DNA of 64,000 nt from an uncultured virus (IMG/VR IMGVR_UViG_3300005461_000009) (taxonomy: Duplodnaviria; Heunggongvirae; Uroviricota; Caudoviricetes). Of the stretch, positions 20,392 through 36,294 are shown in pieces. The DNA lies in the IMG/VR virus record IMGVR_UViG_3300005461_000009; one strand, given 5' to 3'. The translations under genes were made by a program, and so were the position numbers. Positions within the stretch are counted from its first letter, which is position 1. Each line of letters starts with the position of its first letter. Under the pieces are notes generated by a model. It had not been told where the DNA came from. It did not search any database and worked only from the letters and a program-made list of their open reading frames with translations.

Positions 20392-20446
20392 TATTATTTA
20401 GGAGTAAAGCGCACTTTTCTGTCATGACAAACCTCTTTGCCTCCCA
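20392..20446 (-). promoter_or_regulatory. Palindrome-bearing leader element (type A)
   Basis: GGAGG..GAGGTT-TGTCATGACA-..AAAGTGCGCTTT-ACTCCTAAATAA; shares blocks with 24504-24557. Confidence 0.6.
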
Positions 20447-20467
20447 TGTTTTTTTATTCTTTGTTCT

Positions 20468-20827
20468 TTATTGATACTTCCCTTTTTTATTCAAAACTTC
20501 CTCAAGTCTTCTCATTTTAATATTCATTGCTTTATGTAAGTCGTCATTGTTGACACCACAAACTTCTTGAACATAATAAATACTAAGCTGCACATCAGCC
20601 AATTCTTCAAGAATATTATATTGATCGCCTTTCCCTCTAAGTTCTTTTGAAATTTCTTTACTTAACTCAGCGAGTTCTTCCATGACAATAATTAAGTTTC
20701 TATGCCCTCTTGGATTACCATCATGTAAATTGGAATCTACAGACTGTTTCATTACACTCATAATCCATTGCTTGTCTATATTTTTCTCAGTTATAGGTAG
20801 CTGAGAAATAAATTTTTCTCTATCCAA
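20468..20827 (-). CDS. MazG-like nucleotide pyrophosphohydrolase
   Basis: MEELAEL...EELADV acidic motifs; TTG start after GGAGG. Confidence 0.75.
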   Translation of the reverse strand: MDREKFISQLPITEKNIDKQWIMSVMKQSVDSNLHDGNPRGHRNLIIVMEELAELSKEISKELRGKGDQYNILEELADVQLSIYYVQEVCGVNNDDLHKAMNIKMRRLEEVLNKKGKYQ

Positions 20828-20868
20828 TATTTCCTCCTTCCTCATCCAATAAAAGCAAAATTTCAAGA

Positions 20869-21465
20869 CTATTTTTCATTTAACCACACTTTAAATTTCT
20901 CATAAGTACCAAATTTTTCTTTCCACCCTGCAACGATTTCTGTTGGATTCAAATTGAACTGCTTACAAACATGTGTAATATATTCATTTTCATATAATTT
21001 CTTTCTTCTTTTATTCAGTTTCTTAACCTCTGCAAATACATCCTCTCTGGGTACACCATATTGCTTTAATAAGTAAGCACTAAGATCATATTCTGAGTAT
21101 TCAATAAATTGGCAAATAGGGCATACACACTCAGGAACTTCATAGCATCCACTATCTTCACAGCAAAATCCCCATAACTCATCTTCTTCCATTACAAGTA
21201 ATTCATCTTCCGAATAATCTTTGTAGTCTTTTAAATCAGAACTCCAAGCGTCTTTGTTCCACTCGTTCTCTATAATCATTTTAACCATTTCTTCTTTTGT
21301 AGGTTTTGGAAGAGATTCATCACAACAAAATGTATGACCATTAACACATTCCATCATTTCTGTATCTGACAAACACATATCCCACCCACTTTCAGTACGA
21401 CCACATATTTCGCAAACGAAACTAGAACTACTGCTATTTGTAACAAAATCAGTTCTTATCTTCAT
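20869..21465 (-). CDS. TNSSS-motif protein, Cys-rich
   Basis: Starts MKIRTDFVTNSSSSSF; CxxC pairs. Confidence 0.8.
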   Translation of the reverse strand: MKIRTDFVTNSSSSSFVCEICGRTESGWDMCLSDTEMMECVNGHTFCCDESLPKPTKEEMVKMIIENEWNKDAWSSDLKDYKDYSEDELLVMEEDELWGFCCEDSGCYEVPECVCPICQFIEYSEYDLSAYLLKQYGVPREDVFAEVKKLNKRRKKLYENEYITHVCKQFNLNPTEIVAGWKEKFGTYEKFKVWLNEK

Positions 21466-21470
21466 ATTTT

Positions 21471-21809
21471 TTATCCCACCTTAAAGTTTTCTGTGCCAAG
21501 TTTATATCCATAATCATACATAAACGCTCCAAACTCATCATCTTCATTGCAATATTCAACTGCTGATGCAATCCAATCTCCAAGATGCAAGTCTGATGGT
21601 TCTCTAAATAACTGATTGGATAAATCATTTATGAATTTTTCAACTGATTTACCATCAGTATCCATATCAAACATTTCCAATATGTATTTAATATTTTCTT
21701 TATTCTCATTTAAATTATTTCTTATTTCATCAATAGTGCAATTTTCTCTTTTTGCAATTATAAAACTGCTACTTGATGAATTAGTCACAAAATCGCTGCG
21801 TACTTTCAT
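21471..21809 (-). CDS. TNSSS-motif protein
   Basis: Starts MKVRSDFVTNSSSSSF. Confidence 0.8.
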   Translation of the reverse strand: MKVRSDFVTNSSSSSFIIAKRENCTIDEIRNNLNENKENIKYILEMFDMDTDGKSVEKFINDLSNQLFREPSDLHLGDWIASAVEYCNEDDEFGAFMYDYGYKLGTENFKVG

Positions 21810-22881
21810 ATAAATCTTTCTCCTTCCTGTCACATAAAACTATCTGTCTTCTAATAGGACAACCTCCCCTACATTCACACTGCCTACTACAACCACTACA
21901 TGAATTTCTAAAATGATCTCTAAAATCCTCAAACTGTTTACTGTTCCAGGCGTTCTGTACTGTATCATTTGAAATATCATATGCCCATCTCATATCTTGA
22001 TTATCAAAGCTACAAGGTAGCATTTTCATATCTGATGTAATATAAGCAGACCATCTACCACCTTCACAAGTATCAAAACTATCCTCATTTATATTTGAAG
22101 TCATATTGATAAGTGCTGGAACTGTACAAGAGTCAAAACCAATTTTGAAATCGAACTGCTGAGTATCAATAATATGAAAGAATTCTCTTACTCTTTTATC
22201 TTCTATATCTAACACATTATTTTCCTGCCCTAATCCTACCGGCTTATGCAACAAAAAAATTATCGCATTGATGCCTTTAGGGAAATCATTGCTTTTTAAT
22301 CTCTTAATTGCTTCATCAATAGAATTATTACCTAACACATAATGAATATTAGTTTTAATTCCTGCGTCTAACAACATCTGAATTGCTTTATATGTATGTT
22401 CCTGACGATACCAACTGATTGCAACAGCTCCACAAAGCTCTTTACAAAGTGAAACAATCTCTACAGTAAATCCAAGACCAGATGATGTAAAGTTTGGCAC
22501 GATACCATTTTCTCTACTATATCTTAGAATCTTTTCAAAATCTTCATGCTGATCCACATCACCTCTACCACCTAAAGCAAACTGAAAAGTTTTACCCTTA
22601 CACTCGTCCACAATTCTCTTGAAATTTTCAAAAGACATATTTGGATATTTTGTCTTTAAACCATTCTGATAACACTGAACGCCAGATTTAATACATAGAC
22701 CACTGTCTCCATGAACACAATGTCCCATTACTCCTATGTCTAATAATTCTGGAAATGAAGTCATAAAAGGATCTTTGCTTGTGTCTTTGCCATCTTCAAT
22801 AACTCCACTTCTCATGTAAAATCCTGTATTGGGATTAAACATAGATATAAATTTGTTCTTCTTATCAATTTTCTTAATCAT
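21781..22881 (-). CDS. Radical SAM/SPASM protein with an expanded cysteine motif
   Basis: C-x7-C-x6-C (CVHGDSGLCIKSGVQC), ALGGRGD, C-terminal CEGG..PCSF..CSGC..C.CRGGCP SPASM pattern. Confidence 0.82.
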   Translation of the reverse strand: MIKKIDKKNKFISMFNPNTGFYMRSGVIEDGKDTSKDPFMTSFPELLDIGVMGHCVHGDSGLCIKSGVQCYQNGLKTKYPNMSFENFKRIVDECKGKTFQFALGGRGDVDQHEDFEKILRYSRENGIVPNFTSSGLGFTVEIVSLCKELCGAVAISWYRQEHTYKAIQMLLDAGIKTNIHYVLGNNSIDEAIKRLKSNDFPKGINAIIFLLHKPVGLGQENNVLDIEDKRVREFFHIIDTQQFDFKIGFDSCTVPALINMTSNINEDSFDTCEGGRWSAYITSDMKMLPCSFDNQDMRWAYDISNDTVQNAWNSKQFEDFRDHFRNSCSGCSRQCECRGGCPIRRQIVLCDRKEKDLYESTQRFCD

Positions 22882-22926
22882 TTTATGACCTCATTTCTTT
22901 AAATTTTTCCCAATGAAAGAGTTGTT

Positions 22927-23169
22927 TTAACCGTTTGAGTTTTTACCATACAAACCAATAGCCTGTTCGTATGAAATACCATTATCCAATAAATAATGAT
23001 AACAATCTACACAAAAATCTAATTCTGATTCATCTCCAGGAAACGAGTGTAATATATCTTCGTCTGAAACTGTTTTTCCACATTTATCACATATCTCTTT
23101 CCATACCCACCAATTTCCATTACTATTCTCTGAACCATCATAATTAACTCTGTGTAGATTAACCTTCAT
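22927..23169 (-). CDS. Hypothetical Zn-finger protein
   Basis: CDKCG...FCVDC; ATG after AAGGAG. Confidence 0.6.
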   Translation of the reverse strand: MKVNLHRVNYDGSENSNGNWWVWKEICDKCGKTVSDEDILHSFPGDESELDFCVDCYHYLLDNGISYEQAIGLYGKNSNG

Positions 23170-23201
23170 TACTTGTTTCTCCTTCCTTTGAAATGAAAAA
23201 T

Positions 23202-23420
23202 TTATCCTAATGCTTGAAACTTTGTATATTCTAAAATCTTCCAATTATCAGGTGTCATATTTTCGATTCCACAGCAATCACTTTGGTCTACAAAAAATGG
23301 ACAATTACCACAATTTCCTTTCTCATTAAGGTTGTCCTTGCAAACCTGCTTAATAATTTTTAATGAAGTAATAATACTTTTACCATTAATTTCTACACCA
23401 TCTATTTCCCTCTTATCCAT
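23202..23420 (-). CDS. Hypothetical Cys-rich protein
   Basis: GGAGGT SD; C..CPF motif. Confidence 0.65.
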   Translation of the reverse strand: MDKREIDGVEINGKSIITSLKIIKQVCKDNLNEKGNCGNCPFFVDQSDCCGIENMTPDNWKILEYTKFQALG

Positions 23421-23444
23421 TTTATACCTCCAAATATTCTTTAA

Positions 23445-23592
23445 TGTAGTTTGCCCTTGTTCTCGTACAAGGAAGGAGCTACACTACCGCCTGTCGTAAA
23501 CGCCATTCCTACCGTTTGTTGGGAGTCGTTAGAATTGGTAAGGCAACTATCTCCCGAATGAGAACTACCAGTTATGAACTGATAACTCCCAA
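23445..23592. ncRNA. Candidate structured RNA (two large stem-loops)
   Basis: CCTTGT-tctcgt-ACAAGG inside TGTAGT/GCTACA; GGGAGT..GTTAG-AATTGGTA...TACCAGTT..CTGATAACTCCC; GC-rich non-coding island. Confidence 0.5.
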
Positions 23593-23621
23593 TGAAACCG
23601 ATGTTTTAAGTCTATATGTAT

Positions 23622-24503
23622 CTACTCTTCTTTTGCAAAATTCAACATTTCATCTTTTGCTCTCTGGTAGAAATTACGGTCAATTTCAAAACCGAAAGCA
23701 CTTCTGCCAAGTTCATAAGCTGCTCTTAGTGTTGTACCAGAACCTGCACATGGATCAATAACCACATCACCAGGATCAGTAAATATCTCAATCAAACGTT
23801 TCAGAACTGCTACTGGCTTCTGAGCCGGATGGATTTTGGGAACTTCCTTAGACTTATCTTTTTCCCACATCATATATGTACTGTTGCTATGATAAGTTCT
23901 TCCCCACTCATCCTCATCTCCACCATCAAACCAGTTAAAGATCATATGTCCTGTTCCTGGAATGTTCTTACCATTTTCATCAACTTGAAGACCATTTCTG
24001 AATTTTGGCAATTTATCTCTATATAATAGGAGTGCGTATTCAGCAGCTCCCACAACCCTCATGTTAGCTTTGAGTACCTGTGGACTATAATTCTTGCAAA
24101 AGATTAGTGGTATGTAATGAATGAACCCATGCCTTTCTGCCGCCTTAATAAGTGTCTGAATCTGTTCAAAAGAACAGAATACAATCATACAAGGTGAGTC
24201 ACTACTGCGTCCTCTCGGAACAGGTCTAGTATCATCTTTTTTAAGCATCTTGGAACAAAAATGAAAATATTCATATAGATTAAAATTAAAATCAGAATTG
24301 AAAGCTGCTTTACCAGCTAATTTACTTTCACCTTTTTTGTTGTCTCCTCCGTTGTACCACATCGGATTTGAACCGTAAAAATTATTTCCTACATTATATG
24401 GAACATCTGCAATAATTAACTGAGCAGGTGGAATTGCATACTTCTTATAATTCTGCATAGAGTCCCTATATAATTCACATTTGATTTTCTTTTGATATTC
24501 CAT
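23622..24503 (-). CDS. N6-adenine/N4-cytosine DNA methyltransferase (beta class)
   Basis: IADVPY (DPPY variant), HPAQKP, VIDPCAGSGTT, GFEID. Confidence 0.88.
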   Translation of the reverse strand: MEYQKKIKCELYRDSMQNYKKYAIPPAQLIIADVPYNVGNNFYGSNPMWYNGGDNKKGESKLAGKAAFNSDFNFNLYEYFHFCSKMLKKDDTRPVPRGRSSDSPCMIVFCSFEQIQTLIKAAERHGFIHYIPLIFCKNYSPQVLKANMRVVGAAEYALLLYRDKLPKFRNGLQVDENGKNIPGTGHMIFNWFDGGDEDEWGRTYHSNSTYMMWEKDKSKEVPKIHPAQKPVAVLKRLIEIFTDPGDVVIDPCAGSGTTLRAAYELGRSAFGFEIDRNFYQRAKDEMLNFAKEE

Positions 24504-24557
24504 TCTTATTTAGGAGTAAATCATGATTTATTCTGCGCAGAAACCTCATTTCCTCCT
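24504..24557 (-). promoter_or_regulatory. Palindrome-bearing leader element (type A)
   Basis: GGAGG..GAGGT-TTCTGCGCAGAA-TAAATCATGATTTA-CTCCTAAATAA then ATG. Confidence 0.6.
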
Positions 24558-24651
24558 GGTTTTATTATTCTAATTTTTGCATATGCTTATTTTGCTTCTA
24601 CTTTTTGACATACAATGAATCGAAATTTTCATTGCCACTTACCTTACTTAT

Positions 24652-25695
24652 TTATTTTTTCTTCTCGTCCATCTCCTTACAGAATTCTCTATACTTTCTT
24701 GTGTACTCATAACTGTCACCAAAAATATTATTCACAGCAACAAATAGCTTTGGTTCATACTTCTCTATAACTTCCAACTCCTGCTCAAAATCTCTTCCAA
24801 ATGGGCAACCAGCACAACCCGTTCTCTCTAACCCATATTCCGTATAACACTTACTATGTACAATTCCATAATGGTTTTCATAATCTTCTTTGTCTGAATT
24901 TGTGTACCAAAACAAAGGTCTGTAATTATCATAGCCTTCTCCATTTTCATCAAAACAGGATTTATATGCTGTTTGCCTAATACCTCCTTCAGCCCTTCTA
25001 ACCCCAAATACATTTAAATCATATCCTTCATTTGCAACAAGCTTATGTAATACATCTTTCTTTGCATATTTACAACACTTTGAAGAAATTTTGAACTTTG
25101 GAGGATTTTGAATCATGAACTCCTTTAGATATTTGTTATATGCAATATTAAATTGGACTGATTCATTTGCATTACACCACCACATTAACGCACCTTTACA
25201 TCCAACCCAATCTTGTTTCTTTGTATTCCATTCACAATATCTTTGCAATAATATGTCTAATGGTTCATCTTCCCATTGGAATCCATGACATTGTAATCTA
25301 TCAATCATTTCAGAAGCATTTTTTGAAACAAATGGTTGTCCATATTTTTTACAACTTGTAGGGATAGGAACGATTGCTTTATATGGTTTAATTTCTATAT
25401 TATACTTCTCTCTTAACAAGTTCAGATGGTTTTTTGTAGCCTGATATTCTAAACCAGTATCAAACCAAACATATTCTACCTTACCATCTTTATCACATTG
25501 CCAAATAATATCTGCCATTACATCACTGTCTGATCCGCCAGATAAAGCACATACAATTTTCTTGTATTTATCGTTGTTTATCTTTGACCACGCTCTTACT
25601 AAATTATCTCCTATTGTTTGATTTTGTGGAGCATTACTGATTAACTCCATCAGATCAGCAGATTTTGAATTTATATTTTTATCTTTTCCTTGCAA
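24652..25695 (-). CDS. PAPS-reductase-family (PP-loop) protein, phage type
   Basis: LSGGSDS, FDTGLE, KCC, GVRRAEG, RTGCAGCPFG. Confidence 0.85.
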   Translation of the reverse strand: MQGKDKNINSKSADLMELISNAPQNQTIGDNLVRAWSKINNDKYKKIVCALSGGSDSDVMADIIWQCDKDGKVEYVWFDTGLEYQATKNHLNLLREKYNIEIKPYKAIVPIPTSCKKYGQPFVSKNASEMIDRLQCHGFQWEDEPLDILLQRYCEWNTKKQDWVGCKGALMWWCNANESVQFNIAYNKYLKEFMIQNPPKFKISSKCCKYAKKDVLHKLVANEGYDLNVFGVRRAEGGIRQTAYKSCFDENGEGYDNYRPLFWYTNSDKEDYENHYGIVHSKCYTEYGLERTGCAGCPFGRDFEQELEVIEKYEPKLFVAVNNIFGDSYEYTRKYREFCKEMDEKKK

Positions 25696-25756
25696 TTATT
25701 GTACTTACAAGGTATGCGCATACATTTTACCTAGAATTACTTGTATAACTCCTTTC
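25696..25756 (-). promoter_or_regulatory. Palindrome-bearing leader element (type B)
   Basis: GAAAGGA..ACAAGTAATTC..TAAA..GTATGCGCATAC-CTTGTA; parallels 36295-36356. Confidence 0.6.
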
Positions 25757-25890
25757 ATAGTTTGCTGAATTGCTGATTTTTATTAACATTTGCAACTGCC
25801 AATAAAAATATAATTTCTTTTGGTTACTATCTTTTACATTCTATACAGATGATAATTTTACCGATGAAATTGGCTTTTCAAGGAATATTT

Positions 25891-26636
25891 CTATTTCTTA
25901 TATGTGAATAATTTCTCTACTCTGCTTTCATGTTCATGAACTTTTAAACTTGTGGTAACATTTTTGCACCAAATACATTCAAAATCCGAAGGAGCATTAT
26001 ATTCACTAACAAAAGCCAATTTTCTTTACTCATTTTTCTACACCAATCCCAAAACATATCATAATCAAATGAATCTGTAGCATATTTAGTTGTACCTTGA
26101 TACGGAGGATCACAATAAATAACTGCATCCCGTAAATTAGCATACTCATTGTTTCTATAATCGCTACATAAAAATTTAATATTTTGTATATTGGGAATTT
26201 GTTCTGATAAGTTTCTTAATGCTTCATTTGGGATGTCTCTTGGTGTAACTTTGTCTGCTTTAAATCCTCTTGCATACCCACCAAAATATTTAGACCCAAA
26301 AGTTGCATTAAACCCTATAAGACCTACATAATAATCTGGATAATCTTTTTTACTATTTCTAACTTTATTATATTCTTCTTCTGAAATATGCAATGGTATT
26401 TCCCAACCATTCTGAATTTCATTCCACATTGCAATCAATTCTTTATGTATATCATTACCAATACGATTTTCACATTTAATCTTGTCAATCATATTGGCCC
26501 CACCAACAAACGGCTCATAATATATTTTTATATTATTTTCGTCAATACACTTTTGAATAATAGGTACAATATACTTGCTTATTCTGTTTTTACTTCCAAC
26601 GTATTTTATTTTCTTCACCCAGAAAGGTATGATCAT
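25891..26636 (-). pseudogene. Dam-like (D12 class) adenine methyltransferase with a frameshift near the 3' end
   Basis: KYVGSK, YEPFVGG, YCDPPY; the family-like tail VSEYNAPSDFECIW...VEKLF continues in the -1 frame from about 26010 to TAG at 25891. Confidence 0.7.
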
Positions 26637-26669
26637 CTCACGGCAGCAGCACCTTTATTCCTTTCCGTG

Positions 26670-26888
26670 TTATTTAGATTTTCTATTTCCTTCTTTTACT
26701 CGTTCAGCCAACATACTGATTAGTCTTGCTCCATATGGATACAATGAAGGCTCAAATGATATGTAATCTAATTGCATTACACCTCTACCTTGATTTTCTT
26801 CAATAATATTTGCTAATTCATTAAAAAACTTCGCTTGCTGTTCTGAGTCCATGTTCCAAAATTCTTCAACTAATTCTCGTGGATTCAT
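26670..26888 (-). CDS. Hypothetical protein
   Basis: ORF; frame extends to an ATT after GGAGGTG. Confidence 0.6.
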   Translation of the reverse strand: MNPRELVEEFWNMDSEQQAKFFNELANIIEENQGRGVMQLDYISFEPSLYPYGARLISMLAERVKEGNRKSK

Positions 26889-26965
26889 TTCAATATCTAC
26901 TTCTCTTGTAATTATTTATATCACCTCCAAACTTGTGATAAAACAGATTTTTCCTTGGGTTATGC

Positions 26966-27877
26966 TCATGCTATCTTGCAGTAATTCTTATCATTTTCAA
27001 TATTGAATTCATACTGAATAAGTGCTTCATAAACATAATCAGGAATAATATTTTTGTACTCGTTGGCAATTTTAATAATATCTTCTTTCTTCTTTTTAAC
27101 ATAAACAGAATATGCTTCTTCAAGTGTCAAATAACTACCAAGTTCTTCATGATTATATTTTGCAGAGTATCCTCTGACACACTTTTTAATGCCATTAGGA
27201 AGACCACGGTTATTTGGTTTATTTACAAATAGCATATTAATTCTTTGAGGAACTAAAATGCAGTTATCTGGAGAATATACCTTATTCCCTGGATGTAAAA
27301 TATCTTTATCCAAATGTAATCTGCCATCGCATTTATATTCTCTTTCTTCATACCAGTCAGCAAATGTTTGGAAATTGAGCCATTCATTACAAACAGTAGA
27401 TATATCGAAATATGCTGGATGTAAATCTCTATTTTGTTTTCCATAACATCTATCAAGCATATTCTTCCAAGACATATATGTTTTAGTATTTGTCTTTGTA
27501 TCTAGATATTGCATTTTGTGTTTTCCTGCACCTAAATAACCAATGCCAAATACTGTTTTATCATATGGATTTTTGATTTGTCCTCTTCGAAAATTTACAT
27601 ATGTTTGATGTTTCTTTATATGATGGAAATCATCTATAAACTCAACATCAAGATCCTCGCTACTTCTATAAGAAACTATTTTCATTAAAGTACCTTTATT
27701 ATTACTTTTTGTTTCGCCTAATCTGTCCGTTATACCACCTCCATATATTCCTTTCCACACTTGACTACCTATCAGAATGCTCAAGCCACAAACTTGAACA
27801 TTCCAAAAAAAAGAGGTTAAAATGAAAACAACAAAATTTATCTGATTGAGTGATTGAACACTCTGGTAGATAGCCAA
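26966..27877 (-). CDS. HNH-type free-standing homing endonuclease-like protein
   Basis: Y.SW.NML.RC, VC.EW.NFQ.F..W, LDKDIL..GNKVYSP.NC..VP..IN; true start probably near 27733 after GGAGGTG. Confidence 0.7.
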   Translation of the reverse strand: MAIYQSVQSLNQINFVVFILTSFFWNVQVCGLSILIGSQVWKGIYGGGITDRLGETKSNNKGTLMKIVSYRSSEDLDVEFIDDFHHIKKHQTYVNFRRGQIKNPYDKTVFGIGYLGAGKHKMQYLDTKTNTKTYMSWKNMLDRCYGKQNRDLHPAYFDISTVCNEWLNFQTFADWYEEREYKCDGRLHLDKDILHPGNKVYSPDNCILVPQRINMLFVNKPNNRGLPNGIKKCVRGYSAKYNHEELGSYLTLEEAYSVYVKKKKEDIIKIANEYKNIIPDYVYEALIQYEFNIENDKNYCKIA

Positions 27878-27958
27878 GTGTATATTATATTTCTTATCTA
27901 TAATTGTTTTTATCCTTTTTTATCACATAATTTGTCACCTCTTTATAAAAATTTTGTA

Positions 27959-28008
27959 GAACTTATGTTTGTTTTTTCATTGACATTTGGTACAAATTGG
28001 TATATAGT
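27959..28008 (+). promoter_or_regulatory. SigA promoter of the retron locus with an upstream LexA-like box
   Basis: TTGACA(27980)-17 nt-TATAGT(28003); GAAC-TTAT-GTTT at 27959. Confidence 0.7.
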
Positions 28009-28014
28009 TATAGG

Positions 28015-28325
28015 TATCAGTGTTATATAGCAGATTTACTCCCGTTTGGTTCGTTATTTTATATAACGAATGGATGCTCAATGATTTATGAGCATTTTTT
28101 AGGATGGACAGGCTCTGTACCACCGGTATCATCCTGTGCCATCCTCCCCGACAGCACAGGTCATCACATGCTCTTTACATACTTCTTTCAAGAGAAGTAT
28201 AATAAAGTGCTTTTACGGGGAGAAGAATTTTGCTGGTGTAAGGTAGATATACGCTATAATCATATCTCTTTGTTATTTGAGGACTGGGGAGACTCCATTA
28301 TGGAGCCAATATAATAACAAGGAGG
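28015..28325 (+). ncRNA. Putative retron msr-msd ncRNA
   Basis: Series of hairpins: TTCGTTAT/ATAACGAA, ATGCTCA/TGAGCAT, AGGATGG-ACAGG/CCTGT-CCATCCT, and a long CTCCCCG..AGCAC..ATACTTCT/AGAAGTAT..GTGCT..CGGGGAG stem, between the promoter and the RT. Confidence 0.7.
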
Positions 28326-28333
28326 TGAAGCCA

Positions 28334-28513
28334 ATGAAAAAGGCGGATAAATTTGAAATCACTATTGACATCCACAAAAAGGTTCGTATTACTAAAAAAA
28401 TGGTGATTATTTCTGTATCATTAATTGTTCTACTTGCACTGATTATGTCTAACTGTAGTTCTGAAACATTAGCTGATATTATTCGCTCGTTAATCAGCAT
28501 TGTTTCTAACTAA
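28334..28513 (+). CDS. Small (59 aa) transmembrane protein, candidate retron effector
   Basis: AAGGAGGTG SD; hydrophobic MVIISVSLIVLLALIM. Confidence 0.7.
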   Translation: MKKADKFEITIDIHKKVRITKKMVIISVSLIVLLALIMSNCSSETLADIIRSLISIVSN

Positions 28514-28545
28514 CACCAGCATTTATTTGAATATTGAGGTTATTT

Positions 28546-29517
28546 ATGATAGATCCAACAAAATCAAATTTGTATAAATTATCCACCAAAAAATATTTAA
28601 TGATACTTTTAAAAGTTCCTACAAAAGAATATCTAAATCAAAATTTTGTTGCAAAGCAGATTAATCCATATATACAAGCAAATCCAAAACCTCGTTTAAT
28701 TGAAGCTCCTTCGGATTCTCTTAAAAAAATTCAGAAAAACATAAAATGCGAATTAAATAAAATAGAAGTTCCTTCAAATGCATTCTCTGGTATAAAAGGA
28801 AAATCTTATGTTGATAATGCTGCTATACACCAAAACTGCAATTTTCTTTTTAAAATAGATTTAACAGCATTTTTCCCATGTATAACTCGTGAAACAGTGT
28901 ATAATTTTTTTAAAGTTGATTTAAAAACACCTTCTGATATAGCCAATATTCTCACTAATTTTGTTACTATTGACTTAACTTTATGTGATATTCAGGAATC
29001 AGAACCTATTGAGCAATTCCTTTTATCTAAGGGAATAAAAACTACAAATCATTTAATTTCCGGTTCTCCTGCAAGTCAAATTCTATCTTATTTAGCGAAT
29101 CATAATATGTTTGATGAACTACAAAATTTTTGTGATAAAAATGAGATAATTATGTCTATATATGTAGATGATATTACCTTTTCTTCACAACACGAAATTT
29201 CACACAAGCACAAAGAAATAATTTATAATATTATTTCTAAATATTTATATAGGCTTTCAAGATCAAAAGTAAAATACTATACAAATACTTATCCAAAATC
29301 TGTTACTGGAACTATCATTTCTCCTAATGGGAACCTCAATATTCCTAACTCATTAAGCCATAAAGTAATGAATGAATTGCGTAATTATAAGAATAATCCA
29401 AATGACGAACACTCTCAAAAGAGACTTCAGGGTTTAATAGTGGCCGCACAACAAACTGAACCAACAAAATTCAGTAATATTTATAATCATGTTCGCAATG
29501 CTACTATTAAAGCATAA
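28546..29517 (+). CDS. Retron-type reverse transcriptase
   Basis: NAAIH (region X NAxxH), KIDLTAFFP, GSPAS, YVDD, VTG (region Y). Confidence 0.88.
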   Translation: MIDPTKSNLYKLSTKKYLMILLKVPTKEYLNQNFVAKQINPYIQANPKPRLIEAPSDSLKKIQKNIKCELNKIEVPSNAFSGIKGKSYVDNAAIHQNCNFLFKIDLTAFFPCITRETVYNFFKVDLKTPSDIANILTNFVTIDLTLCDIQESEPIEQFLLSKGIKTTNHLISGSPASQILSYLANHNMFDELQNFCDKNEIIMSIYVDDITFSSQHEISHKHKEIIYNIISKYLYRLSRSKVKYYTNTYPKSVTGTIISPNGNLNIPNSLSHKVMNELRNYKNNPNDEHSQKRLQGLIVAAQQTEPTKFSNIYNHVRNATIKA

Positions 29518-29941
29518 TTTTTAATCCACTAAAATCTGAATCCTTGAAAGTTTTATTCTTAAACTGCACCAAACATAACCTATTTTTATACATTCCAAGA
29601 ATTGACTGTGTAATACCATTTCTCTTTTCCAGTACATTTAAATATAGCTTTAGATAAAATGGTTTATCATTCTCTTTACACCACTCAATTAAGTCATACA
29701 CTTCTTTATTTTCTGCCATAGAATCAGCATCTTCATCACTTTCTTCTTCTGATACTTCCTTCTCTACTAATTCAAAATACTTTTCAAATTCGTTATAAGA
29801 CATACACCCAAGATGACAGCCACCAAATTTAAAACTGATAACGCCATCTTCTGATACATCTGTCACTTCGCAAACTTCTCCGATATTATCAAATACTCCC
29901 ATCGGCTTAATCAGCCTAATCTCATTTCCTTTTGTAATCAT
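29507..29941 (-). CDS. Hypothetical protein
   Basis: ORF coupled to the PcfJ-like gene. Confidence 0.6.
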   Translation of the reverse strand: MITKGNEIRLIKPMGVFDNIGEVCEVTDVSEDGVISFKFGGCHLGCMSYNEFEKYFELVEKEVSEEESDEDADSMAENKEVYDLIEWCKENDKPFYLKLYLNVLEKRNGITQSILGMYKNRLCLVQFKNKTFKDSDFSGLKIML

Positions 29942-31056
29942 GCTGTTTTCCTTTCTTTATCTGCAAATTTTTTATTCCATTTATCAATTGCTTCTTGGTC
30001 TTCTGATGTTACAGGATCGTTAAATCTTCTTCTGGCTTGTACAATATGATTGTTTCGTATCTCAATAGTGACAAGACTCTCTTTAGGATTAGATTTCTTA
30101 CGCAAGAACATAATATGACATTCTCCATCAATAACTTTATCTATGTAAGAAGCCACACAGTTATTTTGTGCTACTGCCTCATCTTTAATTTCTTGTGTGC
30201 TATCAGGATAAATAAACTGATAATCCCCAAATATACATTCCAAATTCTTATTTATTCTTGTCTTAAATATCTCCTCAGAAAATTCTTTCTTTAATCTATT
30301 ATAATTTCTACATGCAATCTTATGTGTAGTAAGAAAATTCCGTGGATATTTATCAAATTTTGGACTGATCGTATTCATCATTCTTGCATAATCTACCAAT
30401 TCACCAAGTAAATGACGCATATCTTCTATTGCTTCAAAAGTTTTTAGAGTGTCAAGATACAGCAACAATGCTTTCGGATTATATCCATATTCTTCAATCA
30501 ACTTATTAAAATAGGAAAAGTAATTACTAATCCCATCAACATAATCATAACTTTCTCTCATTAAAATTTTATTGATGTCTTCATCTGTTAAAGATATATA
30601 ATCAAGCTGATACGCCAGAAAATGAGCATCAGGATTTCTTTTCCAATAATCACAAAATCTATCTGATATTTTTATTTGTCTATCTCTCGCTATTTTGATT
30701 AAAGATTTTGGAATATCATTGATTGTTTTTGTAAAATTTCTATCTACAATACTATCGAATCCTGCTGAAAATATCTGTTCAAATTTTGAATACTGTGGAA
30801 CTTTTGAAAGAATTGTACCTATATTTGATATGTAATTTGGGTATCTATTCTGTACAAATTTGAGAAATTTAGCATATTTTTCATCAGCACAATACTCAAT
30901 TATCTGATTCATTGTTATGCCTGATAATTGGCTCTGCAATCCTTTTACTGGTTTACCTTTGATCCCTATACAAGTTTTTGTGGCAAAATCATATTTGACA
31001 GTCCTTCCATCTTCAAAATCAAATATTAAGAACTGTTTCTCTTTGTAAACTCTCGT
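29938..31056 (-). CDS. PcfJ-like domain protein; probable ACG/ATA start
   Basis: E...QNNCVASY...I.FLR...SLVTIEI...I.QA motif; frame open to ATA-ACG after GAGGTG. Confidence 0.72.
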   Translation of the reverse strand, partial: TRVYKEKQFLIFDFEDGRTVKYDFATKTCIGIKGKPVKGLQSQLSGITMNQIIEYCADEKYAKFLKFVQNRYPNYISNIGTILSKVPQYSKFEQIFSAGFDSIVDRNFTKTINDIPKSLIKIARDRQIKISDRFCDYWKRNPDAHFLAYQLDYISLTDEDINKILMRESYDYVDGISNYFSYFNKLIEEYGYNPKALLLYLDTLKTFEAIEDMRHLLGELVDYARMMNTISPKFDKYPRNFLTTHKIACRNYNRLKKEFSEEIFKTRINKNLECIFGDYQFIYPDSTQEIKDEAVAQNNCVASYIDKVIDGECHIMFLRKKSNPKESLVTIEIRNNHIVQARRRFNDPVTSEDQEAIDKWNKKFADKERKTA

Positions 31057-31101
31057 TATCTATCACCTCTTTTTCTGCCTTAAAATCTCGATTTCATTTC
31101 T

Positions 31102-31149
31102 ATACCATATATAGCAACCATTCATCCAACCGAACACTATATATGGTAT
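31102..31149. promoter_or_regulatory. Tandem NrdR-box-like pair
   Basis: CCATATATAG (31105) and ACACTATATATGGT (core 31137); cores 32 bp apart. Confidence 0.55.
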
Positions 31150-31153
31150 ATTT

Positions 31154-32056
31154 TTATTGTTCAGATACTATCTTTTTGAACATTTCATCTACAGAGTCCA
31201 ATAAATCATATCTCTTATCAAAATCGGCAGTAGAACTTCTTGCAAATTTCTGTTCAACCATATCAATATAATATGTCATGCTGCCATCATCCCCCATGTA
31301 AAACTCATCCCCCTCTTCCTGGCTCATTAATCTCTTAACTTCAAGCTGATCAATAGCCAGATTATCGAAACTCACTACTTTGAAACGCTCAATGATTCCA
31401 CCAAGATTTTCTTTCAGCCACATTTGCTTAATAATGATATTTTCGTGATCCTCACTATACCATTCACCACCACGCCTTAACTGCTTATATCCAAGGATAA
31501 GCATCTTCAAATTCTTATCAAATAACATTTCTACGTCTGAAGGCTTGAGAATACCGTTAATCACATGTATAACTGCATTTGGATATTGCTGAATTAGTGA
31601 TATAAATTCATCTGTTGGATTTACAAGAGATACACCAAGACCATATATTAGTTTTTCATCAACCAACTTCTTAATCAATTCCTGTTTCTGTTCAAAGTGT
31701 CGCTGGTTTACGGTCATATTTACAACGGCTTTCCTATCCTTCAGCTTATGTAAAAATGGAATCAGATCTGGATGGCTCGTTGCATCACCACCACCAAGCG
31801 CAACCTCCTGATACGGATGTAAAGTTTCAATAAACTTCTGGTTCAGAATATCTCCATGTTTACCATTCTTTGTGCTACCCTCATGACAGAAATTACATCC
31901 CATATCACAATAATTACTTATCTTGATATCCATATTCTCTGCAAAATCAGGGATAAACTCATCATCTTCTGTTTCTCTAATCTTGGTTCCATCTGAGAAT
32001 AACTTAGTGGTAAAATTCCCATTCTTATAAATTCCCAACAGATTCATTTCTACCAT
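31154..32056 (-). CDS. Radical SAM protein
   Basis: CDMGCNFCH (CxxxCxxC), EVALGGGD, TVN. Confidence 0.85.
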   Translation of the reverse strand: MVEMNLLGIYKNGNFTTKLFSDGTKIRETEDDEFIPDFAENMDIKISNYCDMGCNFCHEGSTKNGKHGDILNQKFIETLHPYQEVALGGGDATSHPDLIPFLHKLKDRKAVVNMTVNQRHFEQKQELIKKLVDEKLIYGLGVSLVNPTDEFISLIQQYPNAVIHVINGILKPSDVEMLFDKNLKMLILGYKQLRRGGEWYSEDHENIIIKQMWLKENLGGIIERFKVVSFDNLAIDQLEVKRLMSQEEGDEFYMGDDGSMTYYIDMVEQKFARSSTADFDKRYDLLDSVDEMFKKIVSEQ

Positions 32057-32062
32057 CCTTTC

Positions 32063-32434
32063 TTAATCGTGACCGTAATATCCAAATGCTACAACTTCTT
32101 CACCGTTTTGAGTGGTATACTTTTTCTCATATGTCTCATACCAATCATTTTCAAAATATTTTTCACAAGTTTTGATTCCTTCATCTGAAAAAATATCATC
32201 TACTGTATCCTCATTTTCCCAATTAACCTTTTCATATCGTGGTGTTCCATCATGCCACTTCATTTTTTTCATTTCTTCAATGATTTCTTCTTTGGTTCCA
32301 AATTTATTTTCCTCTTCCCAATATAATACTTCGCCGTTCTCCCACTTTTTGTACTCTTCTCCAGAACACATTGTTAAACTATGTACTGAACTACTATTTG
32401 TCTCGAATACTCCACGTCTTACTTCCCTCTTCAT
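32063..32434 (-). CDS. TNSSS-motif protein
   Basis: Starts MKREVRRGVFETNSSSVHSL. Confidence 0.8.
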   Translation of the reverse strand: MKREVRRGVFETNSSSVHSLTMCSGEEYKKWENGEVLYWEEENKFGTKEEIIEEMKKMKWHDGTPRYEKVNWENEDTVDDIFSDEGIKTCEKYFENDWYETYEKKYTTQNGEEVVAFGYYGHD

Positions 32435-32450
32435 AAAATAAACTTCCTCC

Positions 32451-32897
32451 TTAATCACAATCTGTTTTTAATGACACATACTTATTGAATACAAAATTGA
32501 TAACCGCATCCTCATCATAAACATTGACAATTTCAATATTGCCATAGGGCTGCGACTGATGATCAATCTCTGGTTCCTGTTCTCCTAAAATCTTAATTCC
32601 TGTCGCACCTGTATATTTACAAATAGCATCCTGAATTTCTCTAAATTCCCACTTGTCATAAATATCAGATATATCATATCCTGACAGATAATATAAACAA
32701 GTAATCAGATAGGAAAGTTTGTCATATTGTGATGTATAAATACGTTTGTCTTTTCCAAACTGTCCAAAATCAATTTCTATTTCTCCATCCTTATTCAGTT
32801 TGAATTCACTCGGTTCCCTGCCCTCATTAGAAATAACCAAACTGTGAACCGAAGACGAATTTGTTTCAAATACACCTTTTCTAATCTTCCTTTTCAT
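32451..32897 (-). CDS. TNSSS-motif protein
   Basis: Starts MKRKIRKGVFETNSSSVHSL. Confidence 0.8.
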   Translation of the reverse strand: MKRKIRKGVFETNSSSVHSLVISNEGREPSEFKLNKDGEIEIDFGQFGKDKRIYTSQYDKLSYLITCLYYLSGYDISDIYDKWEFREIQDAICKYTGATGIKILGEQEPEIDHQSQPYGNIEIVNVYDEDAVINFVFNKYVSLKTDCD

Positions 32898-32904
32898 TGA
32901 TCCC

Positions 32905-33618
32905 TTAATCCTCTCTTGGATATTCATGATCAATCATATCCATATTTACTAGCCCTGTTTGCTTCATATTGTCCCAATAGCAATATTCATCACCGTCTTG
33001 AATGACGACATATTTCTTATTTATAAGATATTCTTCAAGAGAAATACCTTCATGCTCTAAAAATCCACTTAGAATATCTTCATCAACATATCCTGTACAT
33101 GGTTTGTCATAATGCCACCAGCCATTTGAAGATTTCCAATACTCAAGTTCAAAACCCCAATCCTTTTCTTTCTGTGATAAATATTCTTTTAGTTCATCTT
33201 CTGTCTTACCATACTTCTGATAATAGTCATCGTTTTTATGTTCTTCATCATTTTTATCTGCAATACTATCACTGTCCATTGGCAGTTTGATCTTTTTAAG
33301 ACCTGGTATATATTTCAATGCAAGTGCAACGAGTTCTTTATAAACATCATCATTATAGTCATGAACCAACGAAGCACACGCATACAACCATTTATCTGTA
33401 AATGTTCCCAAAGCCCTAAATGGACTCCTACCAAATTCCAAATCGTGATCCCAAGGCTCCCAAACACAAGATTCCTCGCCTGTATCTTCGTCTTTACATA
33501 AATATATTCCGTCTAAAAATTCTTCTGGAGTATATTTATCATCTCTCTTCATAACTGTTAAACTATGCATAGAACTCGAATTTGTTTCAAAAACATTTCT
33601 TCTAATCTGTCTCTTCAT
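32905..33618 (-). CDS. TNSSS-motif protein
   Basis: Starts MKRQIRRNVFETNSSSMHSL. Confidence 0.8.
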   Translation of the reverse strand: MKRQIRRNVFETNSSSMHSLTVMKRDDKYTPEEFLDGIYLCKDEDTGEESCVWEPWDHDLEFGRSPFRALGTFTDKWLYACASLVHDYNDDVYKELVALALKYIPGLKKIKLPMDSDSIADKNDEEHKNDDYYQKYGKTEDELKEYLSQKEKDWGFELEYWKSSNGWWHYDKPCTGYVDEDILSGFLEHEGISLEEYLINKKYVVIQDGDEYCYWDNMKQTGLVNMDMIDHEYPRED

Positions 33619-34313
33619 ACTTCTCCTTTCACAACTCTCTCATTCACACTTGCTACAAATTCATTGATCCGCTTGTAGTCTGGATTATCTGGAAGATTTG
33701 TGTTATTCTTTGCATACTCTAACTTCTTCTCATAGACCTTCATACCACGTCTAATCGCATTATTATAAGCAGATGATCCACCCATAATCTTCTTGGAAAT
33801 ACAGATAGAAATTGCAGATTCCAAACTGAATGTATCAGGTTCTCTACATACAGATTTCTCTTTTGTTCCATCTGCAAATGTAACTTCTACAACCTTGTCT
33901 GGCACAATTAGATTTACATCTACAATTCTAATATCTTTCTCTCTACATGTTAAAATTTTTTCAATTGGTAACATTTCTGTATTAAATGCTCCGACATAAT
34001 GATCCATCATATTCTCTCCTCCATAACTTGAACATTTTTTATTTTCTAAATAGTTATAAATTATTTCTCTTAATGGTATTCCAGCTAATAATGCTTCATT
34101 TACTTTATCCAAACTTACAATAAAATCACCCCAACTCGAAGAACGTCTTTGTAAAGTCATGCAAAAATCATCCACAACGCTAGATTCTTCATTAGTAATT
34201 GTTTTCATGATTGTTTTTTGTTTATCAATTTTCCTTCTTATTTCTAATTCTTTTTTCTTACTTTCTGTTATAAATGTTTCTATCCAATTATGCTCAATAT
34301 TTATATTAATCAC
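33615..34313 (-). CDS. Hypothetical protein, possibly chimeric
   Basis: 232-aa ORF; AT-rich 5' half, more GC-rich 3' half. Confidence 0.55.
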   Translation of the reverse strand: MININIEHNWIETFITESKKKELEIRRKIDKQKTIMKTITNEESSVVDDFCMTLQRRSSSWGDFIVSLDKVNEALLAGIPLREIIYNYLENKKCSSYGGENMMDHYVGAFNTEMLPIEKILTCREKDIRIVDVNLIVPDKVVEVTFADGTKEKSVCREPDTFSLESAISICISKKIMGGSSAYNNAIRRGMKVYEKKLEYAKNNTNLPDNPDYKRINEFVASVNERVVKGEV

Positions 34314-34333
34314 CTTCCTTTGAAACGTGGGTT

Positions 34334-34927
34334 TTAAGACTTCTTTTCTTTGCCAATCTCCATAATTAAAATCGTCCCAGAATGTGTTGGACTTGTATTA
34401 GAATTTGCAGTTAAAGTCGATGCATAATCTTTACATTCAGTTCCGTTATATGGAACAAAATATTCTGGAATATAACCATATTTCTCATAAAACTCTGTAT
34501 ATTTCTTTTCGAACCAAGACTTATTTTCTACAATTAACGAGTCTTTCTGTACAGTTGTAATTGCATTAGACAACTCATCATCTCTTACTTCTATTTTCTG
34601 TTCTGTTTTTCCATCTGAATTGTACCTACCACGCATAGCGGCACCTCTTACCTCAACAACTTTTGGTAAATTCCCATGAAATTCAGAAATAAGTGTTGGC
34701 GAATGCCCATATGTTATCTGTGGTTTTTTATTTACCTTTCCTCTATCGTTGATACAAATATCTAAATATTCTTTATCTTTAATACAAGCAACTTTTAATC
34801 CGCTTCTTTGACTTCGCAATGTTGGAACATAATCTTTGTAAAATCTAGCACCATCAAAACCTTGTGTATCATCAATACATATTACTTCTTCGCCACAAGC
34901 AGAATTTACTCCGCTTGTGGTTTGGTA
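34334..34927 (-). CDS. Methyltransferase TRD-repeat module reached by a predicted -1 frameshift
   Basis: PTL/STL TRD-like repeats (VPTLRS, SPTLIS, ASTLTA); frame open up to the slippery site at 34927-34933; no SD of its own seen. Confidence 0.65.
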   Translation of the reverse strand, partial: YQTTSGVNSACGEEVICIDDTQGFDGARFYKDYVPTLRSQRSGLKVACIKDKEYLDICINDRGKVNKKPQITYGHSPTLISEFHGNLPKVVEVRGAAMRGRYNSDGKTEQKIEVRDDELSNAITTVQKDSLIVENKSWFEKKYTEFYEKYGYIPEYFVPYNGTECKDYASTLTANSNTSPTHSGTILIMEIGKEKKS

Positions 34928-34933
34928 AAATTT
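34893..34933 (-). promoter_or_regulatory. Programmed -1 ribosomal frameshift signal
   Basis: In-frame A_AAT_TTT heptamer, 6-nt spacer, 11-bp hairpin CCACAAGCGGA/TCTGCTTGTGG. Confidence 0.75.
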
Positions 34934-36294
34934 CCAGTATTAATGCTTTCATACAATCTGTCCAAACTAGCCTCAAATGCACCAATACCTGAGAAGAAAC
35001 TGCTCAGTTTTAAATCATCAAATAGGTACGGCATTGCCTTATATAACTCAACTAATATGTAATATAAAACATCTACTACTATTGAATTCCCTGATTGTTT
35101 ATAAAGCTGGCTGTTGCTAACAACTTTGCTTGCAGCGTCATATGCCGAATCAGAAAATCCCATAAGCCTGAAAGTTTCTTTTGGCGTTAGTTTGCGGATT
35201 CTAATACCTGTTAAAATTTTATTTCCTTCACCTTTATTTGTTGTTAAAGTTGGTGCTAGTCCATCTTCTGAAAATACATTACCATTCATACCTTTACCAG
35301 ATGGATTTACATTACCAACCTGAACAATCTTAGGTTCATGGCTACCTCCGCCACAAGTATTTAATGTCGGTGAACAACCATCGGGATCATAAATTCTCCC
35401 CACTTGTGGATTCTTCCAATTCCCATTGCAATCAGAAATATTTCCGACTTGTTTTACTACATTTTCATTTACCAATCTGGGATCTTTATAGTCTCTTGAA
35501 GTGAGAGTTGGACAGTAATCATTATATTCCCTTGATTTACCCTCTCTTTTTACCTGACACGGATCATATAGTAAAGAAGTATTAGTATTTAGATTTGTTA
35601 AAAATCTCTGCACTTTATCATCAAAAATATAATATTTTTCATCTACCTCATCTTCCAAAACATCTTTCAAACGAATTCCATTATCAAATTCTCTAGGGAA
35701 CACAAACTTACCGTTGTCTAAGTCTTTCTTGATAAAGATCAGATATACTCGCTCTCTGTTTTGAGGAATACCATAATCTTTTGCGTTCAGCACTTTCCAA
35801 TATGTATTGTAGCCATACTCATGTAACTCATCTTCAAATAATTTGAATGTAGTATCTCTGAATTGTTTACCCACAATATTTTTAACATTTTCATACATTC
35901 CAAAATTAGGTTTATTTCCTCGGATTACTCTCAAATACTCAACAAGAAGTGACGATCTTGTTTTTTCAATATTATTACTTCCACAATTAGGACATTTATC
36001 TCTCTGACTCCAATGTACCGTTAGAGGGTTATATTCATGTCCACAACCATTACAAGTCCACACAGAACCCTTTTGTTTACCAGCTACGCTGAAATCCTGA
36101 CAAGGACTCCCTCCACAAATCATATTAAAATCTTCTAATTTTGTTCCATCAACCTCAGTAATATCACCAAGGTTTAAATTCTCATCTACTCTGTGAATTG
36201 CACAATAGCTTTTAGTCGCATACTTATCAAACTCACAGAAATTTACCAGTTTCCAATTTTTTGATAAACTAAATCTTTTATTATTACTTTCCAA
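34906..36294 (-). CDS. Circularly permuted C5-cytosine DNA methyltransferase with multiple TRD repeats and a Zn-ribbon insert
   Basis: CEFD (II), GGSPCQDFS (IV), ENV (VI), QNRER (VIII), RKLTPKE (IX), YKQSGNS (X), then SFFSGIGAFE (motif I) at the C-terminus. Confidence 0.88.
   Translation of the reverse strand: MESNNKRFSLSKNWKLVNFCEFDKYATKSYCAIHRVDENLNLGDITEVDGTKLEDFNMICGGSPCQDFSVAGKQKGSVWTCNGCGHEYNPLTVHWSQRDKCPNCGSNNIEKTRSSLLVEYLRVIRGNKPNFGMYENVKNIVGKQFRDTTFKLFEDELHEYGYNTYWKVLNAKDYGIPQNRERVYLIFIKKDLDNGKFVFPREFDNGIRLKDVLEDEVDEKYYIFDDKVQRFLTNLNTNTSLLYDPCQVKREGKSREYNDYCPTLTSRDYKDPRLVNENVVKQVGNISDCNGNWKNPQVGRIYDPDGCSPTLNTCGGGSHEPKIVQVGNVNPSGKGMNGNVFSEDGLAPTLTTNKGEGNKILTGIRIRKLTPKETFRLMGFSDSAYDAASKVVSNSQLYKQSGNSIVVDVLYYILVELYKAMPYLFDDLKLSSFFSGIGAFEASLDRLYESINTGNFTKPQAE

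Follow-up and report, generated by a model that had tools for sequence, protein, structure and literature searches.

A phage-borne, HTH-less type VI retron carries the ORF of a predicted membrane effector inside its structured RNA

Results

Organization of the locus

The window, i.e. the whole 64,000-nt stretch of viral DNA that was analyzed, carries a two-gene unit on the + strand, whereas the surrounding phage genes lie nearly all on the − strand. The unit consists of a promoter, a structured leader, a small ORF of 59 aa (28334-28513, +) and, at a spacing of 33 nt, a gene for a type VI retron reverse transcriptase (RT) of 323 aa (28546-29517, +) that is not preceded by an HTH gene. Such a counter-oriented unit had been proposed before from the sequence, and upon re-examination all the elements named in that original prediction were found in their places. 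The promoter (27980-28008, +) is of the sigma-70/sigma-A type, with a −35 box TTGACA at 27980 and a −10 box TATAGT at 28003-28008. It matches the consensus at 11 of 12 positions, as its earlier description as a consensus promoter implied, and the −10 box lies at the same distance in the relatives compared. The leader, previously given as about 300 nt of hairpins, extends over approximately 320 nt. The region folds better than shuffled sequences (z = −4.0). The small ORF is surrounded by a perfect inverted repeat, TGCTGGTGT (28231-28239, IR1) and ACACCAGCA (28513-28521, IR2), as had also been noted; the first base of IR2 is the last base of the stop codon (28513). A 105-aa ORF overlying the RNA (27997-28314) was rejected as a gene, having no Pfam match and being broken in the nearest relative, L004. 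An Rfam search of the region gave a chance match only (E = 0.28).

The unit is part of an inserted cassette with approximate limits at 27895 and 29505 (+). These were derived from L226 and L227 (phages 94-95% identical), in which 27886/27894 is joined to 29505/29506, and from a DNA contig in run X9 that skips 27883-29506. The cassette was absent from seven related phage contigs, with a clean empty site in two. On one side it is flanked by a leader hairpin of the phage, and on the other by the end of a phage gene for 144 aa, which the final RT codons overlap. In Lachnospiraceae bacterium A4, the same insertion site holds an RT that is 93% identical. The notion of a lysogen gained support from an identical locus in a 159-kb record classed as provirus and from an integrase-family protein encoded in the window. 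Runs containing this DNA were mostly labeled mouse gut metagenome. Across 58 loci the neighbors varied, with no fixed neighbor gene; PADLOC matched neighbors at 29 of them, a raw count with no background rate.

Two further features of the phage were observed. A 28-bp inverted repeat (27757-27881), located in front of an HNH endonuclease gene (26966-27877, −), is common to retron-less phages and several other contigs (runs X9 and X14) and looks like a reused leader at a cassette swap point. The region 19216-36294 (−) is dense in radical-SAM-, DNA methyltransferase- and PAPS-reductase-like genes, named by reading their translations; one methyltransferase was confirmed by search. The region also encodes small proteins that have an N-terminal 'TNSSS' motif in common.

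Type assignment of the reverse transcriptase

The RT motifs of the original prediction were recovered as NAAIH (residues 91-95), YVDD (206-209) and VTG (253-255). RT_VI was the best PADLOC model (E = 4.4 × 10−68), the next one (2 × 10−37) being 30 orders of magnitude worse, and the predicted structure (pLDDT 93) had retron RTs as top structural matches (TM 0.72). Two trees, both built without type IV RTs, agreed with PADLOC on type VI, so that the claim of a retron held upon clade placement. In a quick IQ-TREE tree of 36 HTH-less and 29 HTH-linked RTs, the HTH-less RTs formed one side (SH-aLRT 90), sister to the HTH-linked ones. In a larger FastTree tree, the HTH-less RTs together with that of Enterococcus faecalis L207 were sister to eight HTH-linked RTs of Bacillota (0.98), inside type VI; given this nesting, loss of the HTH gene would be derived. 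By its RT the locus is therefore type VI, yet it lacks the Cro/C1 HTH gene before the RT by which the text available of Mestre et al. (2020, PMC7736814) defines that type.

The HTH-less RTs are also set apart by an insert. In the window it comprises 24 aa (residues 144-167; 28975-29046, +), with a helix at residues 153-161 and a model confidence of about 90. An insert of 21-32 aa was present in 36/36 HTH-less RTs and 0/29 HTH-linked RTs, and a pattern [IV]xxF[LI]xxK was conserved in all 36. It represents a single evolutionary event. The L207 RT has 6 aa only at that site, and the type XIII RTs L211, L244, L245, L253 and L272 carry an unrelated 18-aa insert in the same RT loop. These three circumstances make a role of the insert as a brake speculative. 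The RT frame seems broken in L062 and split in L103, with RNA and small ORF intact in both, which may reflect assembly error or decay.

Absence of the HTH gene throughout a lineage

The homologue search returned 559 proteins at E = 10−20 or better, from which 204 loci were taken. L001-L159, mostly from Clostridia, had RTs 39-100% identical. Upstream of these RTs, a search with an HTH profile built from L160-L204 themselves gave no match, and matches in four of the loci lay more than 1.2 kb downstream; the same profile matched upstream of the RT in 43 of the 45 loci L160-L204, the other two being devoid of upstream sequence. The 146 loci that had 620 nt of upstream sequence were reduced to 62 non-redundant ones, again mostly from Clostridia. 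In the window's own record, the best match to HTH_VI had E = 2 × 10−4 (vs 2 × 10−28 for a true HTH) and was 19 kb away, and supply of the HTH from elsewhere in the phage was rejected on account of this weak and distant match. HTH proteins of the host may act in trans.

Since the homologue searches were seeded by the lineage itself, we scanned 800 Clostridia genomes with RT_VI and found at least 59 loci, at least seven of them type VI-grade; these counts are lower bounds, given that G003's own copy was missed. Five of the seven type VI-grade RTs have an HTH gene and no insert, which speaks against HTH absence as a general trait of Clostridia. The other two are HTH-less, with the insert and the small protein of the present lineage. 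Within the literature searched, an HTH-less type VI lineage is undescribed, although the supplements of Mestre et al. (2020) or of the bioRxiv preprints discussed below may list such RTs. A 2026 survey treats 23 Bacillota type VI RTs as an expansion of a known type, with no RNA model in the available text (PMC13712802).

Just upstream of the retron promoter, the palindrome TCGC-N5-GCGA or a close form was seen in L188, L191, L202, L174, L206, L213 and others. Palindromes of this kind, a pattern picked after inspection of HTH-linked loci, occurred in 18/35 HTH-linked loci vs 0/60 HTH-less loci. The palindrome is likely an HTH operator, and its absence from HTH-less loci would be consistent with loss of that operator. 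Neither an operator nor a palindrome is mentioned in the main texts of 10.1101/2025.10.22.683967 and 10.64898/2026.04.27.721009.

Other arrangements were observed as well. An Enterococcus faecalis plasmid (L207:2242-3469) carries an RT_VI gene with an overlapping 93-aa hydrophobic ORF at its start, no HTH gene and the 6-aa insert mentioned above, and is a further HTH-less type VI form. L060, L061, L063, L064, L067 and L070 constitute a divergent subgroup, likewise HTH-less, whose small protein and enclosing repeat are different and which has its own direct repeat variant in both copies.

Small protein

The small protein has a basic N-terminus, a hydrophobic helix (residues 21-40) and an amphipathic helix (43-58). 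Its linkage to the retron persisted in homologues: an ORF of 57-79 aa, led by a Shine-Dalgarno sequence (SD) and ending 27-77 nt before the RT gene, was found in 61 of the 62 non-redundant loci. Small proteins of the main group share the basic start and both helices, while the small proteins of about seven divergent, Bacilli/Mollicutes-like loci are different. The pN/pS ratio was 0.12 against L004, with a median of 0.66 over 732 non-independent and partly saturated pairs; judged by these ratios, the small ORF is under purifying selection.

No Pfam, PADLOC or PHROG family was found for the small protein. For 47 of 48 small-protein members PADLOC gave no match, and for the remaining one a weak and unrelated match. 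As to the type VI small-protein clusters cl2075, cl2760, cl3272 and cl3897, the comparison covered a single proteobacterial small protein, which was not similar. The best ESM Atlas score (0.87) fell on an unnamed cluster and is a lead only, and the structure model is of low confidence (pLDDT 67). The protein is predicted to be a toxic membrane effector.

RNA fold enclosing the small ORF

Alignment A2 contained 50 of the 62 loci; nine divergent or frameshifted and three unanchored loci were dropped. The 9-nt inverted repeat alone does not exceed chance, being present in 72 of 300 dinucleotide shuffles, and it is covariation across the 50 loci, not the sequence by itself, that establishes it as real. 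IR1 (28231-28239, +) forms the 5′ arm of a long-range helix with IR2 that is 93% paired, and 7 of its 11 pairs show two-sided changes. This covariation of the enclosing helix bears out the earlier proposal that the effector ORF is part of the RNA fold. Three helices together displayed two-sided changes in 13 of 27 pairs vs 5.8 in shuffles, and none of 500 shuffles reached the total. IR2 is continued by a U-rich tract (28513-28529, +); at least four T among the 8 nt after IR2 were counted in 44/50 loci.

A second helix covers the SD. The stem TGTTATT/AATAACA of the original prediction is present; it does not end at the SD, however, but belongs to a 12-bp stem that includes AAGGAG of the SD. The anti-SD strand (28266-28277, +) pairs with 28313-28324 (93.5% paired in 50 loci), and the 3′ strand with the SD spans 28313-28328 (+), so that the SD AGGAGGTGA (28320-28328) is predicted to be sequestered. 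The probability of an unpaired SD was below 0.2 in 47/50 loci. When the sequence from 28029 to IR2 was folded, the inverted repeat was paired in 50/50 loci, the SD closed in 47/50 and the loop with the direct repeat (see below) open in 44/50.

The fold has three arms: msr/msd, riboregulator, and small-protein coding. The msr hairpins (28046-28144, +) include an invariant TGG (28047-28049). The predicted msd, the RT template (28144-28230, +), would be copied leftwards from 28230, as inferred from Retron-Vpa2; its 5′ limit is approximate. It corresponds to the length-variable stem-loop region in alignment A2, and the predicted cDNA folds at z = −4.3. G28030 is the best branch candidate in the folding model, where it is unpaired and adjoins the end of the IR1:IR2 helix; G28033 is an alternative, G being found in 49/50 loci at each of the two positions. 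The fold of 28029-28521 brings the 3′ end, the 5′ AGC and the first template base together at a single junction. Further upstream, the 5′ leader (28016-28023, +) is an a1-like alternative partner of IR1, with 97% of cells paired in 50 loci and an invariant GT (50/50). As a supported priming helix, leader:IR1 was rejected, since its covariation was within the range of shuffles (66-205 of 500).

Transcript evidence

RNA contigs were available from relatives 95-99% identical to the window; such contigs fix neither ends, strand nor level. A contig in X15 spans 28029-28521, and those in X18 and X19 (one study) span 28029-28520, all with no loose ends. This span was hence seen in three of six RNA runs and two studies, and DNA contigs run through both ends. 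Other RNA contigs start at 28028 (X20) and 28007 (X17), and X16 covers the RT and not the RNA region; because cover of the RT and flanking genes is scattered in X16, X17 and X20, and these runs may contain DNA, their gaps were not used. Most RNA contigs are without the 28016-28023 leader. A second, L053-like contig stops about 1 nt or less from its IR2 in X18, assuming no indels, and runs past IR2 in X19. Taken together, the contigs hint weakly at a discrete RNA that ends at IR2 and is about 493 nt long; with the three-arm fold they make 28029-28521 (+) the likely mature hybrid RNA. The IR1:IR2 helix and the U-tract would likely function as a leaky terminator.

Covariation of a direct repeat

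The motif GGGGAGA occurs twice in the RNA: copy 1 (28217-28223, +) just 5′ of IR1, close to the cDNA's predicted 5′ end, and copy 2 (28286-28292, +) in the internal loop of the riboregulator, where it is mostly unpaired in 44/50 loci. The two copies share at least 7 nt in 48/50 loci. Eight variants of the 6-nt core were distinguished; in 48 of 50 loci the variant recurred in the partner copy of that locus, vs 2 of 350 foreign comparisons. On the RT tree (49 loci), ten changes to the same letter in both copies fell on the same branch, where about 1.3 were expected; shifted controls gave 0-1 shared changes, and the two copies underwent 19 and 27 changes in total. In 19 loci the copies differ somewhere in an 8-nt window, mostly at its edges. 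HTH-linked loci inspected by eye have a similar direct repeat of different sequence.

An msr segment (28031-28043, +, including 28038-28043) is complementary to both copies and predicted to close arm 1 with copy 1, with a pairing probability above 0.5 in 39/50 loci. Cognate msr:repeat duplex energies beat all permutations. Part of the covariation is therefore explained without any cDNA. Five of the ten shared changes, however, fall at a position where the msr segment pairs in only 25/50 loci, which favors a requirement for identity, as in a cDNA:RNA hybrid. As a comparative signal, the covariation supports the proposed pairing of the cDNA with the riboregulator loop. In the predicted cDNA of the window, the complement of the repeat is partly held in a hairpin.

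Discussion

Proposed mechanism and alternatives

We consider it probable, from the analysis as a whole, that the locus is an HTH-free two-gene type VI retron in a temperate phage, whose Vpa2-like translational lock would protect the lysogen. The sequence itself shows a promoter, a structured RNA in which the long-range IR1:IR2 helix encloses the small ORF, a stem over the SD, and an intact RT. Upon infection, the RT would copy the msd leftwards from 28230, and the first cDNA bases, complementary to repeat copy 2, would pair in the riboregulator loop; both steps are modeled on Vpa2. The cDNA:RNA hybrid, of 7-10 bp, would then open the 12-bp stem at the SD, in all likelihood aided by a further factor, for instance RNase H cleavage, and the small protein would damage the membrane and abort the infection. 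RT insert and RNA fold might, speculatively, stand in for the HTH brake. Direct opening of the stem by loop occupancy was rejected in silico: with the loop forced unpaired, the SD stayed closed (median 0.00). With all sequence 5′ of the loop removed, it was partly open (median 0.39; above 0.5 in 12/50 loci). It is because blocking of the loop alone leaves the SD closed that we propose, as a guess, an RNase H cut. A bolder elaboration of this mechanism seems unlikely to us. It holds that the retron is self-contained and dispenses with any accessory regulator; that the 3′ end of the toxin mRNA itself forms the priming helix; that after loss of the leader, IR2 and the free 5′ AG*C make up a nicked, circularly permuted a1/a2 junction, or else the 3′-OH primes; that the RT insert replaces the HTH as brake and sensor; and that the first cDNA bases guide an RNase H cut which frees the ribosome-binding site.

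One alternative is an RNA switch in place of a cDNA key: reverse transcription would remove copy 1, and the freed msr segment (28038-28043) would pair with copy 2 as a pseudoknot and refold the riboregulator. The msr segment is able to base-pair with copy 2 at five core positions (in 48, 49 or 50 of 50 loci at four, and in 37/50 at the fifth), cognate duplexes outdo permuted ones, and the invariant TGG of the msr is complementary to a CCA that is conserved across the loop from copy 2. This switch nevertheless leaves shared changes at positions unpaired with the msr, and exact identity where a wobble would suffice (L046, L057), without a cause; msDNA supplied in trans is sufficient in Vpa2 according to the text available of the preprint (10.1101/2025.10.22.683967), and nested folding gave msr:copy 2 in 0/50 loci, albeit with a method blind to pseudoknots. 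We regard it as rather doubtful. Control could also be exerted after translation, as in Retron-Sen3, with the small protein always made and held inactive; the insert of the RT would here take over the part of an HTH protein. Sen3, as far as described in its preprint, combines an SD-sequestering fold and IR1-IR2 with constitutive toxin, from which it follows that the RNA layout is no proof of translational gating, and none of the HTH-less RTs in the main set lacks the insert. The nearly full pairing of the SD in 47/50 loci tells against such control, as does the covarying direct repeat, which would have no role; a soluble RT, moreover, would hardly be able to hold a strongly hydrophobic helix. 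Overall, this arrangement appears improbable. Least probable, in our estimation to a high degree, is a function other than defense, be it an addiction or maintenance module of a mobile element or a non-toxic membrane peptide under retron control. The occurrence in prophages and varied mobile-looking contexts would fit it, and no family match ties the small protein to toxins. On the other hand, all type VI members tested so far defend, as reported in the partial record available, defense-type neighbors are found at 29 of 58 loci (again with no background rate), and the cassette is a counter-oriented accessory insertion with its own promoter. The translational lock remains our preferred reading, although the dependence of both Vpa2 and Sen3 on their HTH counts against it.

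Significance

Type VI retrons invert the normal logic of retrons. Two preprints of 2025-2026, in the text available, disagree on how the toxin is released, and both systems described are HTH-dependent. The widespread HTH-less lineage of gut Clostridia reduces the system to RNA, toxin ORF and RT and thereby isolates the RNA switch, a minimal two-gene version in which activation of the toxin by copied DNA could be tested. Its natural variants lend support by comparison to the direct-repeat pairing proposed by Zhang et al., and they supply compensatory alleles ready for use. These loci would probably escape pipelines that demand RT and HTH. Engineering, too, could make use of a compact DNA-triggered translation switch.

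Comparison with known systems

The closest described relative is Retron-Vpa2, in which an inverted repeat surrounds the toxin ORF within a hybrid RNA of 470 nt, and whose msDNA, even in trans, unlocks translation of the toxin (Zhang et al., 10.1101/2025.10.22.683967). The HTH protein of Vpa2 represses reverse transcription and is essential, and the authors propose, leaving this for future work, that a 7-nt direct repeat pairs msDNA with the riboregulator (same preprint, in the text available). The core idea of the original prediction, translation gated by reverse transcription, is thus already known from Vpa2, and bioRxiv supplements may already show its repeat model. The type assignment, the Vpa2 precedent, the direct repeat and the missing HTH gene were no part of the original prediction. 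The present locus resembles Vpa2, as far as the preprint describes it, in its type VI RT, a likely three-arm hybrid RNA of about 470-490 nt, an ORF enclosed by an inverted repeat, an SD in a stem, and a direct repeat of about 7 nt common to msd and riboregulator loop. It differs from Vpa2, on the same footing, in having no HTH gene, an insert in the RT and a Bacillota host; its small protein is unrelated and has a hydrophobic helix of membrane length, and repeat copy 1 is predicted to be paired with the msr rather than to lie in a hairpin loop. As to the host, Bacillota have AddAB rather than RecBCD.

In Retron-Sen3, a type VI member of cl2075, toxin and ssDNA are constitutive and the HTH is needed as antitoxin (Garcia-Rodriguez et al., 10.64898/2026.04.27.721009, in the text available). 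Like Sen3, the present locus has IR1-IR2 around a small ORF, an alternative 5′ partner of IR1, a sequestered SD and a likely transcript spanning the ORF; unlike Sen3, which depends on its HTH antitoxin, it has no HTH. The text available of the same preprint also gives 158 type VI entries, 78% of them with an HTH cluster and about 22% without. With type IV retrons (Ec48, with a two-TM effector; PMC7736814, as far as available) the locus shares a clade 3 RT, a membrane effector and the lack of an HTH. The type IV effector is described there as a separate gene downstream of or overlapping the RT, whereas here the ORF lies inside the RNA and upstream, and the RT scores as RT_VI. We rejected an assignment to type IV, given one hydrophobic helix instead of two TM segments and the upstream position of the ORF.

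Short hydrophobic toxins silenced by SD-sequestering mRNA structure are also known from type I toxin-antitoxin and abortive-infection modules. There an antisense RNA is the key; here the likely key would be DNA that the RT copies from the very RNA encoding the toxin. It is the missing HTH gene that is the real point of difference from the published type VI systems.
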